Source: a virus (lineage: Duplodnaviria; Caudoviricetes). From it: a stretch of DNA of 30,359 nucleotides. Positions 1,181 through 30,359 of this stretch are shown here, one piece after another. The stretch lies in IMG/VR virus record IMGVR_UViG_3300012953_000136, positions 1 to 30,359 of that record, one strand, 5' to 3'. Both the position numbers and the translations under genes were made by a program. The first letter of the stretch is position 1, and every line of letters starts with the position of its first letter. The notes under the pieces were generated by a model that did no database searches, was not told where the DNA came from, and saw only the letters and a list, made by a program, of their open reading frames with translations.

Positions 1181-1240
1181 CAATTATTTTCAATTATTTT
1201 CAAAAAAGGGGTTTACAAAGGGTCAAAAATGTGGTATAAT
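1181..1240 (+). promoter_or_regulatory. T4 early-type sigma70 promoter with A/T-tract upstream element
   Basis: GTTTACA (1211-1217), 17-bp spacer, TGTGGTATAAT (-10 at 1235-1240); (CAATTATTTT)x2 at 1181-1200. Confidence 0.9.
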
Positions 1241-1275
1241 ACACATGTATTTAATAATATAACTGAGGAGTTAGA

Positions 1276-1596
1276 ATGGATAGATTAGAATTAATCAAAA
1301 AAGCGGCACTAAAAGCCAAAGCAAAAAAACAAAATACAACAGTCGAAGAATTAGAATTTCAAGAAACAATTCGTAGGCTCGACGAACGTAAGGCTAAAAT
1401 CAAAGCCGATCAAAAAAAGATCAAGAAAGATCTTACATCACAAATGAAAAAAGCTGGACATCTAAAGGCAGGTACTTTAGATTTAAACAGTCCAGAAAAC
1501 ATGTATTACTCAGAGAAAGAAACCCAAGACTGGTTCGAAGGTTCTTCCTTAATGGATGCATATAATGCTAACAGATCAGCTGATGGAGATTATTAA
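1276..1596 (+). CDS. Early hypothetical protein, Lys-rich coiled-coil-like N-terminal half
   Basis: GAGGAG SD at 1265-1270; first gene after the early promoter. Confidence 0.85.
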   Translation: MDRLELIKKAALKAKAKKQNTTVEELEFQETIRRLDERKAKIKADQKKIKKDLTSQMKKAGHLKAGTLDLNSPENMYYSEKETQDWFEGSSLMDAYNANRSADGDY

Positions 1597-1597
1597 A

Positions 1598-1783
1598 ATG
1601 TTCGTAGCTAATTTTTTAACAGGTCCTGGTACTGATAAAACACCAGTTAACGTAAAGGTTTCATTTATAGATTATATTGTTTACCTTTTCAGTTCAAAAA
1701 GATTTTTAATTAGAATTGGTAATAAGTATAATACCAATTTTTTATCAAAGTATTATTTTGGAGGAGTAAAATATTATGGATAG
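1598..1783 (+). CDS. Hypothetical protein (61 aa, start MFVANF)
   Basis: GGAG at 1585-1588 precedes ATG 1598; fills the gap between neighbours. Confidence 0.6.
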   Translation: MFVANFLTGPGTDKTPVNVKVSFIDYIVYLFSSKRFLIRIGNKYNTNFLSKYYFGGVKYYG

Positions 1784-1967: not shown

Positions 1968-2205
1968 TATAACATTTCATGAGCAATTTCCATTTGGTAT
2001 TCAAAAAGAATACAAATTTAAAAATGGATATGGTGCATCAGTTATTTGCCATAAAGGTTCTTATGGGCATAAGAGCGGTTTATGGGAGTTAGCTGTTTTA
2101 TTGGGTGATGATATTTGTTATGATACACCTATTACAGATGATGTGATAGGAAATTTAACCGAAGCACAAGTAGAGAACTATTTAGAGAGGATTAAAGCAC
2201 TATGA
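1954..2205 (+). CDS. Conserved phage hypothetical protein (FKNGYGASV...SYG...GLWELAVL...[11 protein letters not shown])
   Basis: Recognisable recurrent phage motif; start may be 1960. Confidence 0.85.
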
Positions 2206-2375
2206 GACTATTAGAAGAACATTATGGTGATGTGAGAATTTTTTCTGATAGGCCATACGGATATAAAAGATATATCGTAGAATGGCCGAATGGTAATACA
2301 ACTACTTATTCTAGTTTATGGTATAAGTTAGAAAAAGTAAAAAAACTGGTGGAGGCCAGATTGAATGATGACTGA
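2202..2375 (+). CDS. Hypothetical protein, 57 aa ([28 protein letters not shown]...), not in the ORF track
   Basis: ATGA overlap with the previous stop, GAGGA SD upstream, open to TGA 2373-2375. Confidence 0.75.
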
Positions 2376-2640
2376 ATATGGAGCTGATGTCGAGAGACAA
2401 AGAAATCTTTTAGAAGCCGAAGAATGGGCAAAAGGTATTAAAACCGTACATGTACACCGAATGAAAAGTATGTGGTATGATGATAGACCTAAAGATACCG
2501 ATAAAAATCACGTGACTGATGTACAGTATAACGATGGAAGGATTATAAGGTCCAAACAAGGTAAAGAAATCCATACGTGGAATAATGAAGTAAAACAAGG
2601 AGACGATTTAATCGCAGCATATTTTGCTCAGGGTAAATAA
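2365..2640 (+). CDS. Hypothetical protein (91 aa)
   Basis: GGAGG SD at 2351-2355. Confidence 0.8.
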   Translation: MMTEYGADVERQRNLLEAEEWAKGIKTVHVHRMKSMWYDDRPKDTDKNHVTDVQYNDGRIIRSKQGKEIHTWNNEVKQGDDLIAAYFAQGK

Positions 2641-2657
2641 GTTTAAAAGTACTTTTT

Positions 2658-2665
2658 TATAAGTA
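2658..2665 (+). promoter_or_regulatory. Putative late promoter variant TATAAGTA
   Basis: One mismatch to the T4 late consensus TATAAATA; predicted +1 (2671-2672) coincides with the start of the downstream hairpin. Confidence 0.5.
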
Positions 2666-2671
2666 CTTTAT

Positions 2672-2731
2672 GTTGGCTAAAATCCCTAACCCTAACTCCT
2701 TATTTTATTTAGGGATTTAGCCAGCTTTTTT
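2672..2731 (+). ncRNA. Candidate small hairpin RNA with anti-Shine-Dalgarno loop (at minimum an intrinsic terminator)
   Basis: 17-bp stem GTTGGCTAAAATCCCTAA/TTAGGGATTTAGCCAGC (one bulged A, one G-U), 19-nt loop CCCTAACTCCTTATTTTAT, T6 tail. Confidence 0.55.
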
Positions 2732-2741
2732 AAAGAAGATT

Positions 2742-2843
2742 ATGAAAACATTATTAAATTTTATATTAGGAATATTAAAACTAGGATTATATTTTATAAT
2801 TGTGTGTATGATATTCGTAGTGGTGATGACTATATATGGCTAG
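2742..2843 (+). CDS. Small hydrophobic membrane peptide, 33 aa (MKTLLNFILGILKLGLYFIIVCMIFVVVMTIYG)
   Basis: Open frame filling the gap and overlapping the next start; weak SD. Confidence 0.5.
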   Translation: MKTLLNFILGILKLGLYFIIVCMIFVVVMTIYG

Positions 2844-3990
2844 AAGAATAAAATCATTAGATGAAAAGTACATGGGTTTCGAACCCGACTTTGCAGAAAC
2901 CCCAATGCCTGAGGATCCTCGGGAAAGGTCTATGCTACATTCTAAATCTACTCGATGGTATTCTTACTTCACAGATAAGAAAAAATATGTTCAGCGTGTA
3001 TATACATATTGCGCTAACACAGAATTATTTACTAAAAAAGAAATACAATATTTAAAGAAGTGTCCTGATTGGAGACTTTATATGAATGTGAAAGGTCATG
3101 CATTTGTTCGAATGCAAGAACGTGGTTGGGTTTATACGCCAGAAGAAATAGAAGATGCACATGATTTCCTTAAACAATGTATGTTAGAAGGGAAAAAGAT
3201 CTATTTAGAAAAGAAAGAAGAAAGAGATTCTAAACCTAAACCAAAGGTTATACCCCCACAAGAAAGATTAAAGAAGAAGGTAGCTACCACTATTGGAGTA
3301 GATTTCGATAGTATGGTGGTTGATAAATGGATGGAAGGTGAATATGATAAGAAGAAAATTCAATTCCCTGTTTATAGTTTATTCCAAATGCACGGATTAA
3401 AAGGTGTTGCTGCAATCAATATGTTTAAAGGTATGATTGATAGTGAATACCAAGGTGTAAAAGAAGCTTATGAAAAAACGTGTGATCAAGCAGTAGAAGC
3501 ATATTCCCACGTTAAGAAAGGTGATCAAAGAAAGATGATAGACCTTATGGATAAGATATATGAAGAGTTAGATAGAGTAAGAGAAGCTCAAAAAAGTTCA
3601 AGAATAAGAACTAAGAAACCTCGATCTAGATCCAAACAAGTAGAGAAATTAAACTTCTTACAAGAATTAGATGGATTAGAATCCATTAGCCCTTTATTAA
3701 TTCCAGAATCTAATTACTTCTGGATGTATAATGTTAAGTCTAAAAAGCTTACAGAATTTGAAACATCTTCCGCCACCGGATTTGAAGTTAGAGGTTCCAC
3801 TCTATATAACTGGGAAAAAGGCAGATGTGCTACACTGAGGAAACCAGATGAGATCATTCCTCAAATATTAAATAATGAAGTTAAACAAATTGACAAGGTC
3901 TGGAATAGTTTAACTACAAAAATAGGGAAACCTACAGGAAGAATAAACAAAGATACTATTCTTCTACGTAGAGAATTATGGAAGAGTTAA
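2836..3990 (+). CDS. Conserved hypothetical protein of T4-like phages (384 aa)
   Basis: Long ORF; C-terminal TLRKPDE...LTTK...GRINKDTILLR pattern; directly upstream of g33. Confidence 0.85.
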   Translation: MARRIKSLDEKYMGFEPDFAETPMPEDPRERSMLHSKSTRWYSYFTDKKKYVQRVYTYCANTELFTKKEIQYLKKCPDWRLYMNVKGHAFVRMQERGWVYTPEEIEDAHDFLKQCMLEGKKIYLEKKEERDSKPKPKVIPPQERLKKKVATTIGVDFDSMVVDKWMEGEYDKKKIQFPVYSLFQMHGLKGVAAINMFKGMIDSEYQGVKEAYEKTCDQAVEAYSHVKKGDQRKMIDLMDKIYEELDRVREAQKSSRIRTKKPRSRSKQVEKLNFLQELDGLESISPLLIPESNYFWMYNVKSKKLTEFETSSATGFEVRGSTLYNWEKGRCATLRKPDEIIPQILNNEVKQIDKVWNSLTTKIGKPTGRINKDTILLRRELWKS

Positions 3991-4219: not shown

Positions 4220-4249
4220 GTTTACAAACAACTTAAAATGTGGTATAAT
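4220..4249 (+). promoter_or_regulatory. T4 early-type sigma70 promoter
   Basis: GTTTACA (4220-4226), 17-bp spacer, TGTGGTATAAT (-10 at 4244-4249). Confidence 0.9.
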
Positions 4250-6195: not shown

Positions 6196-6219
6196 AGGAG
6201 GCTTCGGCCTCCTTTTTTT
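6196..6219 (+). terminator. Intrinsic terminator with C(UUCG)G tetraloop
   Basis: AGGAGGC-TTCG-GCCTCCT followed by a T run, downstream of g32. Confidence 0.92.
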
Positions 6220-6286: not shown

Positions 6287-8323
6287 TTATGTACCTGGTG
6301 CTCCACCGGTTAATTGAGCTTGGGTTCGATTTGGATTAGTTGGTATAACAGTAACATTGGATGTATTATTTACACGGTTATCAACACTAGAATTAGTTAT
6401 ACCAAAGAGTCTCATAACTTTCTCTCTCTGTTCTTCTACGGTCATATCATTTATATTTACGGCTGTTGTAGCAGGTATAAGACCTAAGGCTTCTTTTACT
6501 TTATTAATTTCTTCAACAGCTTTATCTACTCCTTTTATATTAACTAATCCTACAAAATCCATTGAGTTATTACCAAAAATTGCAGTGTCTTTTGTACTAC
6601 CACCTTTTAAAGCTAATTCAAATGTTTTAGATGCGCGTAATAAATCCCTAGCCATCTTTTCAGTGTTTATATTAAAATCAACATCATCTATGTCAGAGAA
6701 ATCATCTAATACGCCTTTAAAATTCTCCAAAGATTCGACACCATCATTAATATCTTCTGAGTTCCTAGCTAATATCATAGCTTGTTCTACTGGGCCTTTT
6801 TCACCTGAGACGAAGTCTAATACTGCTGCTGCACCAGCTCCTAATGAAGCTATAAATTTACCACCCCCAAATTTCATTAATGCTCCACTTAATGTTCCTA
6901 ATAGCCTACTTAAAGCTTTTGCGTCTTCTTCTCCTTTTTCACCAACCATATCCGGAATAGTTAATAATGTTGCTACTTCAGATTTAATATCTTCAGCAAA
7001 ATTCTTGCCAGCATATGCAGTAGTAATATCTGCCATTCCGGCTATACCTTTACCAGCTCCAAATGCTACTAAACCTAAACCTATTCCACCCATCACTGCA
7101 ATAAATTTAGCTGTATCCCAACCCATGCCAGGTATCTTGGATATTGATAATAAGGTTATAACTTCAGCTTTAATATCTTCTGCAAAGTTATCCCCTTGGC
7201 TGAACATTGTGACTGCATCACCTACTCCTGAAGCTGCTTTACCAAATGCAAATGCAGCAAGACCTAGTCCTAAACCTATTAATGCTAATGTTAAAGCACC
7301 ACCGTCTTTTAATGTATCTAATCCACCACCTGCTGCGTCTGGAATTGATAATAGGGTTAATACATTTTCTTTAATTCCTTCAGCCCAGTTAGTTTCACCA
7401 GTGAATAATTCTACACCTTTTTGCATTCCACTAGATACTGCGTTTGCTCCTTGGCCTAATGCGAATACTGTTAAACCTGCTCCTAATCCTATTAATGCAA
7501 GAGTAAGCGCTCCACTTTCTGCAAGCAGATCCAGTTTACCACCTGCTGCGTCTGGTATAGCAAGAAGAGCAATAACATTTTCTTTTATAGTATCGGTCCA
7601 ATTTGTTCCTTCAGTGAATTTACTTACTCCAGCTGCTGCTGCTCCACCTACTGCAAATATTGCTAAACCTGCTCCTAATCCAGATAGTGCTAAGAATAAA
7701 ACTCCACTATCACCGAACATTTCTAGATTACCACCTTCAAAATCTTCACCCATATTCAATAAGGTTTTGATATTATGTCTTACTTTTTCAGCATCTAGAT
7801 CTGCCATAGTATCTGCAAGATATGCAAGTGAAGCTATGACTGCAGCTACACCGATACCAGCAGCTCCAACCCCGATTCCTATTCCGCTCATTACCCCACC
7901 AATTTTGTCCATCATTTCTCCGCCGCCCTTTGATTGGGCTTTAGCTAAAGCATCTGGTTGGTTTTGAAGTGAGGCTCGGATATCCATGAAGATGTCTTTC
8001 ATCTCCATATCAGATTCGGCTTTTTGCATTGCTTCAGTAGAAGATTTTTGATCGTCATCTTCTGCTGCTGCTTTCTGTGCTTTGAGATCTATCCCAAAGC
8101 TTTTATTTAAGGCTATTGTATTGGCTAATGACTCTTTTTGAATGTTCTTCATTTCAAGTAGATGTCTACGAACATTAATCGTATCTCTACCTAAACTACC
8201 ACCCGTGGCTTTACTTTGCTCTATTAATGTAGCTTTTATATCGGATAGTATTCCAGTTTGCGACCGCTCGCGCTGCTGTTCTTCTTCACCTTGATTAGCA
8301 TTATTAGTTATGTCATCAGCCAT
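6287..8323 (-). CDS. Probable tail tape-measure protein (gp29-like position) with hydrophobic repeats
   Basis: 678 aa, Ala/Gly-rich helical repeats, C-terminal SSVDNRVNNTSNVTV; last gene of the tube-g26-g51 operon. Confidence 0.65.
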   Translation of the reverse strand: MADDITNNANQGEEEQQRERSQTGILSDIKATLIEQSKATGGSLGRDTINVRRHLLEMKNIQKESLANTIALNKSFGIDLKAQKAAAEDDDQKSSTEAMQKAESDMEMKDIFMDIRASLQNQPDALAKAQSKGGGEMMDKIGGVMSGIGIGVGAAGIGVAAVIASLAYLADTMADLDAEKVRHNIKTLLNMGEDFEGGNLEMFGDSGVLFLALSGLGAGLAIFAVGGAAAAGVSKFTEGTNWTDTIKENVIALLAIPDAAGGKLDLLAESGALTLALIGLGAGLTVFALGQGANAVSSGMQKGVELFTGETNWAEGIKENVLTLLSIPDAAGGGLDTLKDGGALTLALIGLGLGLAAFAFGKAASGVGDAVTMFSQGDNFAEDIKAEVITLLSISKIPGMGWDTAKFIAVMGGIGLGLVAFGAGKGIAGMADITTAYAGKNFAEDIKSEVATLLTIPDMVGEKGEEDAKALSRLLGTLSGALMKFGGGKFIASLGAGAAAVLDFVSGEKGPVEQAMILARNSEDINDGVESLENFKGVLDDFSDIDDVDFNINTEKMARDLLRASKTFELALKGGSTKDTAIFGNNSMDFVGLVNIKGVDKAVEEINKVKEALGLIPATTAVNINDMTVEEQREKVMRLFGITNSSVDNRVNNTSNVTVIPTNPNRTQAQLTGGAPGT
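6850..7800 (-). repeat. About five degenerate 62-71 aa repeats within the tape-measure-like gene
   Basis: IKENV..LL.IPDAAGG / NFAEDIK.EV.TLL.I units; 18-nt identities at 7325/7538 (213 apart) and 7472/7664 (192 apart); boundaries approximate. Confidence 0.85.
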
Positions 8324-27552: not shown

Positions 27553-30359
27553 TGCCAGCAAATAACGAAACTAGAATTATAAAGACCAACACATTTGAAG
27601 ATTGGAGACAAAAGGATAACGAGATCTCATTTGAACTTGGTGATGTTGATCAGCTAGATTCTCGTATACTAGATAAAAATCATAGTTGGACAGCATCAGC
27701 CGATCAATCTATATTTCAAGATGTAGCACACAGATTTGAAATAGCACCAGAACAAGTTACAGATATAAATGTTATAATCTTTACGGGATTATCTTCTATA
27801 CCAAGTAACTTTGTAGCTGGAAATACAGTAACACAATCAGGTGGATTTTCCGGTAAGATTTTATGGATTAATAAAAATAAAGTTGCACTTGAATTAACAT
27901 CCGGAACATTTAATGCAGGACAAAACTTAGCTCAAGGTGGACAAAATATTCCACATGCTAATATAGTAAGACAAATAGTAGAATCGGTTAAAGTTGGATA
28001 TGCTAGAGTAAAGGTCGAAGGGACAGAAATTACTCAAAGCCAAATTCAAGCTGGATGGCATGCAGCTAGTTATAATTTAAAGATTACACTAACAGGTACA
28101 CCAACAATACCATCTACATTTACAGAAGGTGCAACACTTTATCAAGGAAGTGTTGGATCAGAATCATTTACTGGTACATTACTATATGCTGATTCATCGT
28201 ATTTATATTTTAAAACCCATACTGGAACATTTAATACCAGTATTATGGTTAAACAATCAGAAACAGCTGGTGATAGAATCACAGCTGGTGGATTAAATGC
28301 AGCAACTGCAGCAGATACATCATTCTTACAATTAATTGAATTACATACACAATCAAGTGCTGATGATGTAGTATTACTTATTGCAAATTCAGCCGTATTA
28401 GCTATTAATGAAGTACAAGATGATATTGGTGATATTACTTCATTAGGAACAACTAATAAAGCAGATCTAGTTACAGCTATTAACGAATTAGAAACTGCAG
28501 CACGTGGATCAACAGCTAACTATACTATTAGTACTACATCAAATGATTTAGTTGGAGCAATAAACGAACACGATGCTGAATTAGGAACAATTACATCTGT
28601 TGCAATGGGAACAGGTGCAGCAACAGTAAGTGGAGCTATTGCAGAATTAGAAAACGAAATAGATGTTCTTAATGCAAGAGTAGAACCAACACAAGCATTT
28701 GCAGGAACATTTAGTGCATCAACAGTGATGGATGCTTTAAATGAACATGAAGGTGATATTGGTAATATGACTTTCACAGGCTTAGCAGCTACTGATATAT
28801 CAGCAGCATTAAGAGAAGTAAGAGTTGATATAGGTAACGTTGGAAATAGTGGAGCAACACTAACAACTGGTACAAATATTGCAGCTACAGATTTAACAGC
28901 AGCAGTTGTAGAATTAGATGGAACAATAGGATCTGGTGTTATAACAGGATCAGGAACAGAAGCAGTTGGAGCTGGGAGCTTAACCACTGCAGTTAACCTA
29001 TTAAATACAGCACTTGGTGATTCAGATTCATATAATGATGGAACATACGGTGCAAATACAATTGCAGGTACATTAGATCTTTTACAAGCTGGAATGATCT
29101 CTAATGATACAGATATAGCAGCAAGACTAATTAAAACAAGTGGAAGTTCACAAGCATTAGCAACTGACTTAACATTTGGTGGTAATAAAACCTATACAGT
29201 ATCTTCTGGTTCCACACTAGACGTTTCAAATGGTACATTATTATTACCAGGTAATGCTTCAGGTGTTAACACATTCTCAGTATCATTCCTTAATGTTGAT
29301 GGTAATCAAACATCAACTGGTATGGGTATGCGAGTTGATAGAGCTCATATTGGTGGTTCTCCAACCCCTTATCCAGCAGTACAATGGAGAGAATCTCAGA
29401 TTGGTGCTAGTAAAGGACACAGAGGATGGCAGATAGTTGGAACAAACGCTGCTGGTTCTTCATCAGTTACATCTGATTTAGTTACATTCTATAATGCTGA
29501 AGATTTAATTTCAAGTAATACTGAATCAGGTATTGCAGTAACATGGGATTCAACAAATCAGAATTTTGATTTTAATGTAAATGATTTCACAATTACATTA
29601 GGCGGTGATTTAACAGGTAATGTTACAATTACAGACTTAGCAAGTGCTACACTTACAGCGACAGTCGCAGCTAACTCAGTAGCTTTAGGAACAGATACAA
29701 CTGGCAATTATATGTCAGGTATCTCAGGTACTGCAAACGAAATTACAGTAACACATACTCCAGGTGAAGGTTCATCTGCAACAATAGCATTACCAGATGA
29801 TGTTACTATTGGAAATAACTTAGTAGTTACAGATTATGCAAGAGCAGCTGGTCTTAGAGTTGGTACATCCGGAGCAGATCCAGGTGATAACAATATGGCA
29901 GTTGCTGGTAATGCAGAAGTAGGTGGAAACTTAACAGTCACAGGAAACTTTACAGTAAATGGTACAACAACTACATTAAGCACAACTAACTTAGAAGTTG
30001 AAGATACACTTATACTAGCAGGTTCAGATTTAGGATCTACAGAACCAAGTACAGGTGGATTTGGATTAGAAACTAAAGTGTTCGCGGGCGTACACTCGAA
30101 CGCGGCAGCAGGCGTAACGGGCGCACACTCACTCGTATATAACTTTGCTACAGATAGATGGGAAGCTGATGGATCATTAGTTCTTTCAGCAGCTACTGTA
30201 GGTTCACCAGATGTAGCAGCAGAAGGAAGCGCTAGTCTTGCATTAACACAATCTAGAAGATTACATTTTAATGCAGGTGCAGGTACATCAACATCAGCTT
30301 CTTTAAGTAGTAATGATATTGATATTACAGTTAATAATACTGATAGAGGTTCAGCACAA
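27552..30359 (+). CDS. Tail fibre-like structural protein, 3'-truncated (at least 936 aa; absent from the track because no stop lies in the window)
   Basis: MPANNETRIIKTNTFEDWRQKDNEI start; LVTAINE/LVGAINE-type repeats at about 28.4-29.1 kb; GNLTVTGNFTVNGTTTT fibre motif; same frame at both ends and at the internal points checked. Confidence 0.85.
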   Translation, partial: MPANNETRIIKTNTFEDWRQKDNEISFELGDVDQLDSRILDKNHSWTASADQSIFQDVAHRFEIAPEQVTDINVIIFTGLSSIPSNFVAGNTVTQSGGFSGKILWINKNKVALELTSGTFNAGQNLAQGGQNIPHANIVRQIVESVKVGYARVKVEGTEITQSQIQAGWHAASYNLKITLTGTPTIPSTFTEGATLYQGSVGSESFTGTLLYADSSYLYFKTHTGTFNTSIMVKQSETAGDRITAGGLNAATAADTSFLQLIELHTQSSADDVVLLIANSAVLAINEVQDDIGDITSLGTTNKADLVTAINELETAARGSTANYTISTTSNDLVGAINEHDAELGTITSVAMGTGAATVSGAIAELENEIDVLNARVEPTQAFAGTFSASTVMDALNEHEGDIGNMTFTGLAATDISAALREVRVDIGNVGNSGATLTTGTNIAATDLTAAVVELDGTIGSGVITGSGTEAVGAGSLTTAVNLLNTALGDSDSYNDGTYGANTIAGTLDLLQAGMISNDTDIAARLIKTSGSSQALATDLTFGGNKTYTVSSGSTLDVSNGTLLLPGNASGVNTFSVSFLNVDGNQTSTGMGMRVDRAHIGGSPTPYPAVQWRESQIGASKGHRGWQIVGTNAAGSSSVTSDLVTFYNAEDLISSNTESGIAVTWDSTNQNFDFNVNDFTITLGGDLTGNVTITDLASATLTATVAANSVALGTDTTGNYMSGISGTANEITVTHTPGEGSSATIALPDDVTIGNNLVVTDYARAAGLRVGTSGADPGDNNMAVAGNAEVGGNLTVTGNFTVNGTTTTLSTTNLEVEDTLILAGSDLGSTEPSTGGFGLETKVFAGVHSNAAAGVTGAHSLVYNFATDRWEADGSLVLSAATVGSPDVAAEGSASLALTQSRRLHFNAGAGTSTSASLSSNDIDITVNNTDRGSAQ

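Follow-up and report, generated by a model that had tools for sequence, protein, structure and literature searches.

A conserved hairpin RNA family of T4-like phages with a loop complementary to the leaders of early genes: a candidate brake on early translation

The question of how early protein synthesis is turned off arises for those T4-like phages in which no RegB can be recognised. In T4 itself, the endoribonuclease RegB cuts early mRNAs at GGAG Shine-Dalgarno sites and leaves later genes untouched, and the 2010 review that describes this activity states that functional characterisation had not been achieved for any small trans-acting regulatory RNA of T4 (PMC3014915). A search for RegB (PF10715), run without a positive control, gave no match in five incomplete relatives. 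The hairpin family described below offers a testable answer to this question. One of its members lies in the window, by which we mean the whole stretch of DNA that was analysed, namely the complete 30,359-nt virus record of a T4-like phage.

The early block of the window is headed by a σ70-type early promoter, TTTACA-17-TGGTATAAT, which is located at 1212..1240 on the plus strand, matches the consensus at 11 of 12 positions and recurs at 4221 and 5162, giving three copies in the window. The first gene behind it (ORF 1276; 1276..1596, plus strand) encodes 106 amino acids of unknown function with only weak PHROG and Pfam matches, and the last gene of the block (2365..2640, plus strand) encodes 91 amino acids. 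The 3′ UTR of the latter gene contains two hairpins, P0 and P1. Further downstream lies a gene for a 384-residue protein of unknown function (PHROG 11903; 2836..3990, plus strand), which served as the synteny anchor 3′ of the hairpin and is followed by the T4-like genes gp33 (3978), gp59 (4592) and gp32 (5254). The best matches of this gp32 among cultured phages (C48C1, pelagiphages, Melnitz and cyanophages) are only 52-57% identical. A scan of the window detected no terminator-like hairpin between the promoter at 1212..1240 and P1, and the transcript that ends in P1 is predicted to start at this promoter.

P1 (2672..2725, plus strand) is the main RNA hairpin. Its minimum free energy (MFE) fold has 17 base pairs with one bulged A and one U-G pair, encloses an open 19-nt loop (2690..2708) and is followed by a U6 tract (2726..2731), the predicted 3′ end of the early transcript. 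The geometry given in a preliminary description of this DNA, a 17-bp stem with a 19-nt loop and T6, was thus recovered upon folding. The fold has a free energy of -21.9 kcal/mol and a z-score of -3.94, and none of 200 shuffled sequences was as stable; the loop bases have computed unpaired probabilities of 0.55-1.0. Within the loop, the family core ACUCCUUAU occupies 2695-2703 and the stretch complementary to the target, CUAACUCCUUA, occupies 2692-2702. Compared with an intrinsic terminator, which has a GC-rich stem, a 3-8-nt loop and a U tract, P1 has the stem and the U6 tract together with a 19-nt loop, and it was not called in the terminator scan of the window. A scan of the window with Rfam 15 gave no matches at the gathering threshold, and only chance-level matches were obtained with E≤10 over 2500-2900 and with E≤5 in four related loci.

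P1 belongs to a real phage RNA family that has no Rfam entry. Relatives were reached via the neighbouring proteins: the downstream 384-aa gene and the upstream 91-aa gene gave 19 and 15 loci, respectively, to which the best 80 of 98 loci and at least 67 from a metagenome scan were added. The PHROG 11903 gene was present in 164 of the 173 sequences collected. After removal of those with a truncated gene start, less than 150 nt of upstream sequence or a duplicate upstream region, 108 distinct loci were left. A motif-and-fold search found a hairpin enclosing the motif in 101 of these, and a covariance model added the variant hairpins of L076 and L081, which brought the number upstream of the PHROG 11903 gene to 103 of 108. 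Other misses were L119, which is cut inside the loop, L116, with only 531 nt of upstream sequence, and L103-L105, which have no hairpin at the site. In the 74 unique cores, each position of ACUCCUUAU is kept in 73-74 sequences, in agreement with the loop conservation that had been proposed as a check; this conservation arises partly by construction, since the search required a UCCU-type motif, while the 3′ AU was not required by most patterns. The stems have a median length of 14 bp and differ freely in sequence. Stem covariation, another property proposed for verification, was evident in 18 sequences of one subgroup, where 99.2% of the cells were paired and 11 of the 14 pairs were changed on both sides. 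None of 500 shuffles reached the observed pairing, and slid controls were only 31-43% paired. A covariance model from another clade recognised P1 as the sole match in the window (2669-2730, E = 3e-4), and matches to the model were likewise limited to one per record in the relatives G002, G003 and G005. Some members carry an extra small hairpin beside the motif with the core still unpaired, either on the 5′ side (L040, 6706-6778) or on the 3′ side (L006, 4849-4912).

A strand-neutral count of helix oppositions gave 87 G-U against 13 A-C, and the RNA is therefore the plus strand; locus by locus, 40 favour the plus strand, 2 the minus strand and 32 are tied. An earlier test based on MFE folds (103 versus 153 G-U pairs, plus strand more stable in 41 of 74) is confounded by the G/U-rich minus strand. 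Together, these family data support a conserved plus-strand RNA over the alternative, raised in the preliminary description, that P1 is only a terminator. At least 5 T within the 8 nt after the stem are present in 48 of the 74 homologues, while 26 have no good U tract. The 3′ flank of the stem has a steadier feature than a long U tract: position +4 is U in 71/74 homologues and position +5 in 63/74, ACCUU and ACUUU being frequent, and this may mark a defined 3′ end.

The reach of these searches deserves mention. The covariance model, which was built from one subgroup, gave no match in any of four phages (Cr30, PA5oct, C48C1 and HTVC008M); it also missed the hairpin of G001, whose loop is the variant UUAUCCUUAUCA. 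An exact search of viral contigs for the two stem arms of the window's hairpin gave no match, nor did blastn against cultured phages. A 14-mer loop scan of viral contigs returned 93 distinct sites; all four that were linked to PHROG 11903 are hairpins, compared with 5 of the 89 unlinked sites, which fold modestly. In RNA libraries, a contig of one relative (less than 90% alike), found in one of three, spans 1995-3453 and thus the hairpin; ends and strand of an RNA are not visible from it and it may derive from DNA. No publication describing the hairpin family was found, the supplementary motif tables of comparative RNA screens lying outside this search, and the passages on phage sRNAs in PMC11512511 and PMC9964418 contain nothing similar. 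The family resembles the cuckoo RNAs of Alphaproteobacteria in that the stems vary around a constant C/U-rich loop. Cuckoo RNAs consist of 2-4 hairpins that all carry CCUCCUCCC (PMC4615179); such adjacent hairpins are not found here, where a single motif hairpin displays a core, ACUCCUUAU, that is tuned to phage leaders and has no Rfam match.

What the loop is complementary to is suggested by the window itself. Both CTAACTCCT (2692-2700) and its complement AGGAGTTAG (1266-1274) occur once on the plus strand, and the latter lies in the extended Shine-Dalgarno region of ORF 1276. The exact complementarity to the SD-to-start region of the first early gene that had been noticed beforehand is therefore real, and at 1264..1274 (plus strand) it extends to an 11-bp duplex with one G-U pair and a predicted energy of -16.4 kcal/mol. 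When 25-nt windows on both strands were scanned, as had been proposed for the ribosome-binding sites (RBSs) of the phage, that of ORF 1276 was the best loop partner on the plus strand of the window; a minus-strand site near 29379 scored better (-17.7 kcal/mol). ORF 1276 also stands as the named target in that its homologues carry long loop matches in many relatives, and in G003 the loop target is found at the same site as 1264..1274 of the window. The idea that the loop also matches the Shine-Dalgarno sequences of ORFs 507 and 1776 holds in so far as pairing was found, but this pairing is weaker: 7 bp and -10.4 kcal/mol for ORF 1776 (1761..1767, plus strand) and -9.1 kcal/mol for the RBS of ORF 507. 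A mimic of the 16S tail would be expected to match GGAGGU. The loop instead follows the GGAGUU, GGAGUG and GGAGC leaders of the phages, and nothing was found in support of the shut-off of host translation that had also been put forward.

Targets were then counted in five records (G001 of 137 kb, G002 of 128 kb, G003, G005 and the window) with simple in-house gene calls. Perfect matches of at least 9 nt were present at 14 of 45 first genes behind early promoters (early-first genes), compared with none of 57 late-promoter genes and 3 of 352 others. The difference was retained among genes bearing a Shine-Dalgarno sequence (14/31 early-first versus 3/207). Across the 74 loci, which are related and hence not independent, 68 of 114 early-first sites had at least 9 nt matched, as opposed to 37 of 504 other AGGA-type sites. 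Loop flanks match the leaders of their own phage better than foreign ones. In the 5′ flank of the loop, the match extended over 2.76 nt at own and 1.90 nt at foreign sites when loci were grouped into 17 clusters at 70% protein identity (p-value of 5e-5), and over 2.74 versus 2.13 nt for 9 clusters at 60% (p-value of 2.5e-4). The 3′ flank showed no own-over-foreign excess (p-values of 0.10-0.37).

Loop and leader also change together. AAUUAACUCCUUAU is found with AUAAGGAGUUAAUU in L010 and L025, UCACUCCUUA with UAAGGAGUGA in L143, L155 and L169, and AUUUACUCCUUAUA with UAUAAGGAGUAAAU in L067. In L076, which the motif search had missed and which is thus outside the own-versus-foreign flank test, the loop A that hardly varies elsewhere is replaced by G. 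GGAGC is found at two of the three early sites of L076 and at none of the 93 sites of A-type loops. A loop C at -4 goes with a target G at 6 of 14 sites, compared with 1 of 83 otherwise. Single-position tests on tree-independent pairs were not significant, but these comprised 5-7 pairs and were underpowered. Such natural compensatory alleles (loop GCUCC with GGAGC, UCACUCC with GGAGUGA) provide ready specificity controls. Taken as a whole, we consider it highly probable that the loop pairs with early leaders. The core leader motif can persist without a local hairpin, as judged from one clade (L103, L104, L105, L161 and L162) that has no hairpin at the site, which lies some 100 nt before the PHROG 11903 gene, and has kept the TGATAAGGAA leader. 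This clade is a sister clade of G001, and its clean loss of the hairpin from this site amounts to a natural deletion.

In 54 of 73 loci, no more than 9 nt separate the stem from the stop codon that ends the last early gene. Of 12 loci examined, 8, among them the window, have no terminator-like hairpin in the preceding 4.2 kb. The best reading of the element is therefore that nested early transcripts end with it, in preference to a late transcript. Since the loop is complementary to early RBSs and covaries with them, it is likely to act as a brake on early translation, and a repressing rather than an activating direction is favoured because the predicted duplex covers the Shine-Dalgarno sequence and the spacer. 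In the reading that we prefer, though tentatively, the hairpin RNA would be a processed, trans-acting negative-feedback repressor of the first early genes. Nested early transcripts from several σ70-type promoters would run into the P1 hairpin, and a host nuclease of the RNase E type would cut the U-rich sequence that precedes the stem. Early mRNAs would thereby release a stable 3′-terminal RNA of some 60 nt, protected by its stem. As this RNA accumulates, duplexes of 9-14 bp would hide the Shine-Dalgarno sequence and spacer of the first early genes, so that small early proteins would be made in a burst before loop pairing blocks their translation. The replication genes for gp32, the sliding clamp, polymerase, NrdA and gp55, which are served by this type of promoter too but have no match, would stay on. 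All five are among the match-free early-promoter genes of G002, where long matches belong to small unknown genes of the local block and shorter core matches are found at CobS, at a peptidase gene and at a gene of 64 aa.

Support for action in trans comes from several sides. Matches to the 9-nt core lie 37-96 kb from the hairpin in G001 and G002, the distant ones using the invariant core only, and own sites outscore foreign ones at genes that directly follow the hairpin and have a promoter of their own (6 clusters, p-value of 0.008). In 53 of 74 loci, the RNase E-type motif RNWUU lies no more than 12 nt ahead of the stem, compared with 29.7 in shuffled sequences and with 109 of 220 AU-rich early leaders; in the window, RNWUU is located in the paired arm of P0. 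Against the brake reading stand the predominance of upstream matches, which cis pairing would explain as well or better, and, weighing most, the leader kept in the clade without a hairpin at the site. A search for Hfq, the positive control of which worked, found none in five incomplete relatives.

Precedents for such a scheme exist in bacteria. OppZ and CarZ of Vibrio cholerae are autoregulatory 3′ UTR-derived sRNAs, released by cleavage from the ends of operons, that repress the transcripts they come from (PMC7398697). The phage hairpin shares with them an RNA at an operon 3′ end that pairs with its own translation starts and, close to the predicted 5′ end, a motif of the RNase E type. The 3′ UTR location typical of these sRNAs is likewise seen, both in the proximity to the stop codon mentioned above and in the matches of at least 9 nt at 65 of 79 upstream early-first sites, transcript continuity being predicted. 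Unlike OppZ and CarZ, the hairpin is encoded by phages and known from sequence alone, its seed lies in the loop of one large hairpin, and its target site is common to several first genes of nested transcripts. The parallel with RegB is a functional one, RegB being a protein nuclease and the hairpin an RNA. If the proposed scheme is true, the hairpin would match T4 RegB on the RNA side. It would act in trans as a timer of translation, for which the literature searched gave no example in lytic T4-like phages, and feedback regulation by 3′ UTRs would extend from bacteria to lytic phages. It is conceivable, and we put this forward with still more reserve, that this widespread T4-like clade times its early-to-replicative switch via its own 3′-end RNA, which co-evolves with the leader code of the early regulon.

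The scheme would also explain why early genes of phages carry an extended Shine-Dalgarno motif. A comparable case is that of the start-associated sequences of cluster K mycobacteriophages, an extended phage-specific Shine-Dalgarno motif that precedes non-structural genes and goes beyond 16S pairing (PMC3203893). A single opposite-strand copy was noted there, and whether the binder is RNA or protein was left open (PMC3203893). In contrast to the hairpin family, these sequences concern other phages and another motif, and the passages dealing with them describe no hairpin-displayed complement (PMC3203893).

The main rival, which ranks second to the trans-acting feedback repressor and which we regard as possible though unlikely, is a fold-back in cis. 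Here the 3′-end loop would pair with the 5′ Shine-Dalgarno sequence of its own mRNA, 1.2-4 kb away, so that translation would proceed during synthesis of the transcript and be silenced upon its completion. The icaR mRNA of Staphylococcus aureus sets a precedent, in which an anti-Shine-Dalgarno motif in the 3′ UTR pairs with the upstream Shine-Dalgarno sequence on the same transcript (PMC3868564). The phage hairpin shares the complementarity of a 3′ UTR to the upstream Shine-Dalgarno sequence, but differs from icaR in its polycistronic phage mRNAs, the 1.2-4 kb between the partners, the multiple targets and the covarying scaffold. Matches of at least 9 nt are indeed concentrated upstream of the hairpin (65 of 79 early-first sites, compared with 3 of 26 immediately downstream), and both the closeness of the stem to the stop codon and the eight loci lacking a terminator-like hairpin upstream fit a fold-back. 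The icaR-type geometry thus fits, but distant and downstream matches exist too. The pairing would have to span a long distance over translated cistrons, and the core matches tens of kb away and the 13-nt matches behind a promoter downstream of the hairpin in L022 and L025 speak against it.

It is improbable that loop pairing protects or activates the early leaders, be it as a nuclease shield or by opening a weak leader hairpin. The Shine-Dalgarno sequence of ORF 1276 is indeed predicted to lie in a weak 5-bp hairpin, and the covariation is silent on the direction of the effect. However, RNAs that pair over the Shine-Dalgarno sequence and the spacer exclude the 30S subunit, and the predicted duplex covers both.

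We are equally doubtful that the element is a mere terminator or processing hairpin, with the complementarity as a by-product of promoter-leader cassettes (recombination of the PeSL type) or of an inverted leader copy. The U-rich tails of 48 of the 74 homologues and the leader motif retained in the clade without a local hairpin would agree with this, as would the early promoter that follows the hairpin in 33 of 74 loci, reminiscent of the composite terminator-promoter elements of T4-like phages (PMC4122927). These PeSL cassettes consist of a repeated stem-loop and an early promoter (PMC4122927), and the hairpin resembles them in that those 33 loci have a stem-loop ahead of an early promoter where a variable region begins or ends. 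A repeated unit is nevertheless not seen, since the window and three relatives have a single copy each, and the antisense loop is conserved. The loop has also stayed constant while the stems were freely replaced, loop and target covary in several separate lineages, and 26 of the 74 homologues have no good U tract.

The preliminary description had pictured a stand-alone small RNA that is transcribed late from TATAAGTA and shuts off early and host translation. This we now judge very improbable. The octamer is present at 2658-2665, where it had been placed, but its function as a promoter does not follow from this position. It lies in the loop end and 3′ arm of P0 (2646..2669, plus strand), an AU-rich hairpin of 9 bp in which a G-C pair has changed to A-U in a compensatory manner in L038 and L111. 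A loop change in P0 breaks the octamer in L158, and it is absent in L037; unrelated stems occupy the P0 region in L037, L046, L118 and L140. The exact late box TATAAATA, which should be conserved upstream of homologues of a T4-type late transcript, precedes none of the 74 hairpins, and TATAAGTA precedes 7 of them, all in the window's clade. In the window, TATAAATA boxes are located in the structural region. TATAAGTA shows no strand bias in G001 or G002, being split 9 versus 7 in the latter, where TATAAATA is split 39 versus 3. Across 18 clusters no conserved 6-mer was detected upstream of the stems beyond AT-rich words. In favour of late transcription, the spacing between octamer and stem fits a T4 late start, and none of the 57 late genes has a long loop match. 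Moreover, the 31-nt block 2642-2672 is identical in L004 (2347-2377) and L005 (354-384), where the P1 stems have diverged, and P0 pairing alone does not account for this identity, which is compatible with a late sRNA. The identity keeps a promoter or operator role open in the window's clade, and besides forming P0 the block is possibly a protein-binding operator or a clade-specific promoter. It is made of two AAGTACTT palindromes.

Finally, a minus-strand RNA with a AUAAGGAGU loop acting as a decoy for a leader-binding protein (CsrA-, RegA- or RegB-like) would explain the leader likeness without pairing, and G002 encodes a RegA-type repressor, but the excess of G-U oppositions, the 40 to 2 preference of the loci with 32 ties and the U-rich tail on the plus strand make it barely credible.

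Several minor observations were made alongside. G002 encodes, besides the RegA-type repressor, ribosomal protein S21 as the first gene behind an early promoter (L182:4317-4583; L181:10642-11019), which suggests that a single phage controls translation at several levels. Between the hairpin and the PHROG 11903 gene of the window lies a strongly hydrophobic 33-aa ORF (2742-2843, plus strand) without a Shine-Dalgarno sequence or a PHROG or Pfam match, and similar small hydrophobic ORFs occupy the same place in L001-L005, L119 and L158. A short inverted repeat with A/T tails at 6196-6216, between gp32 and the gene that converges on it at 6287, resembles a terminator for both directions.
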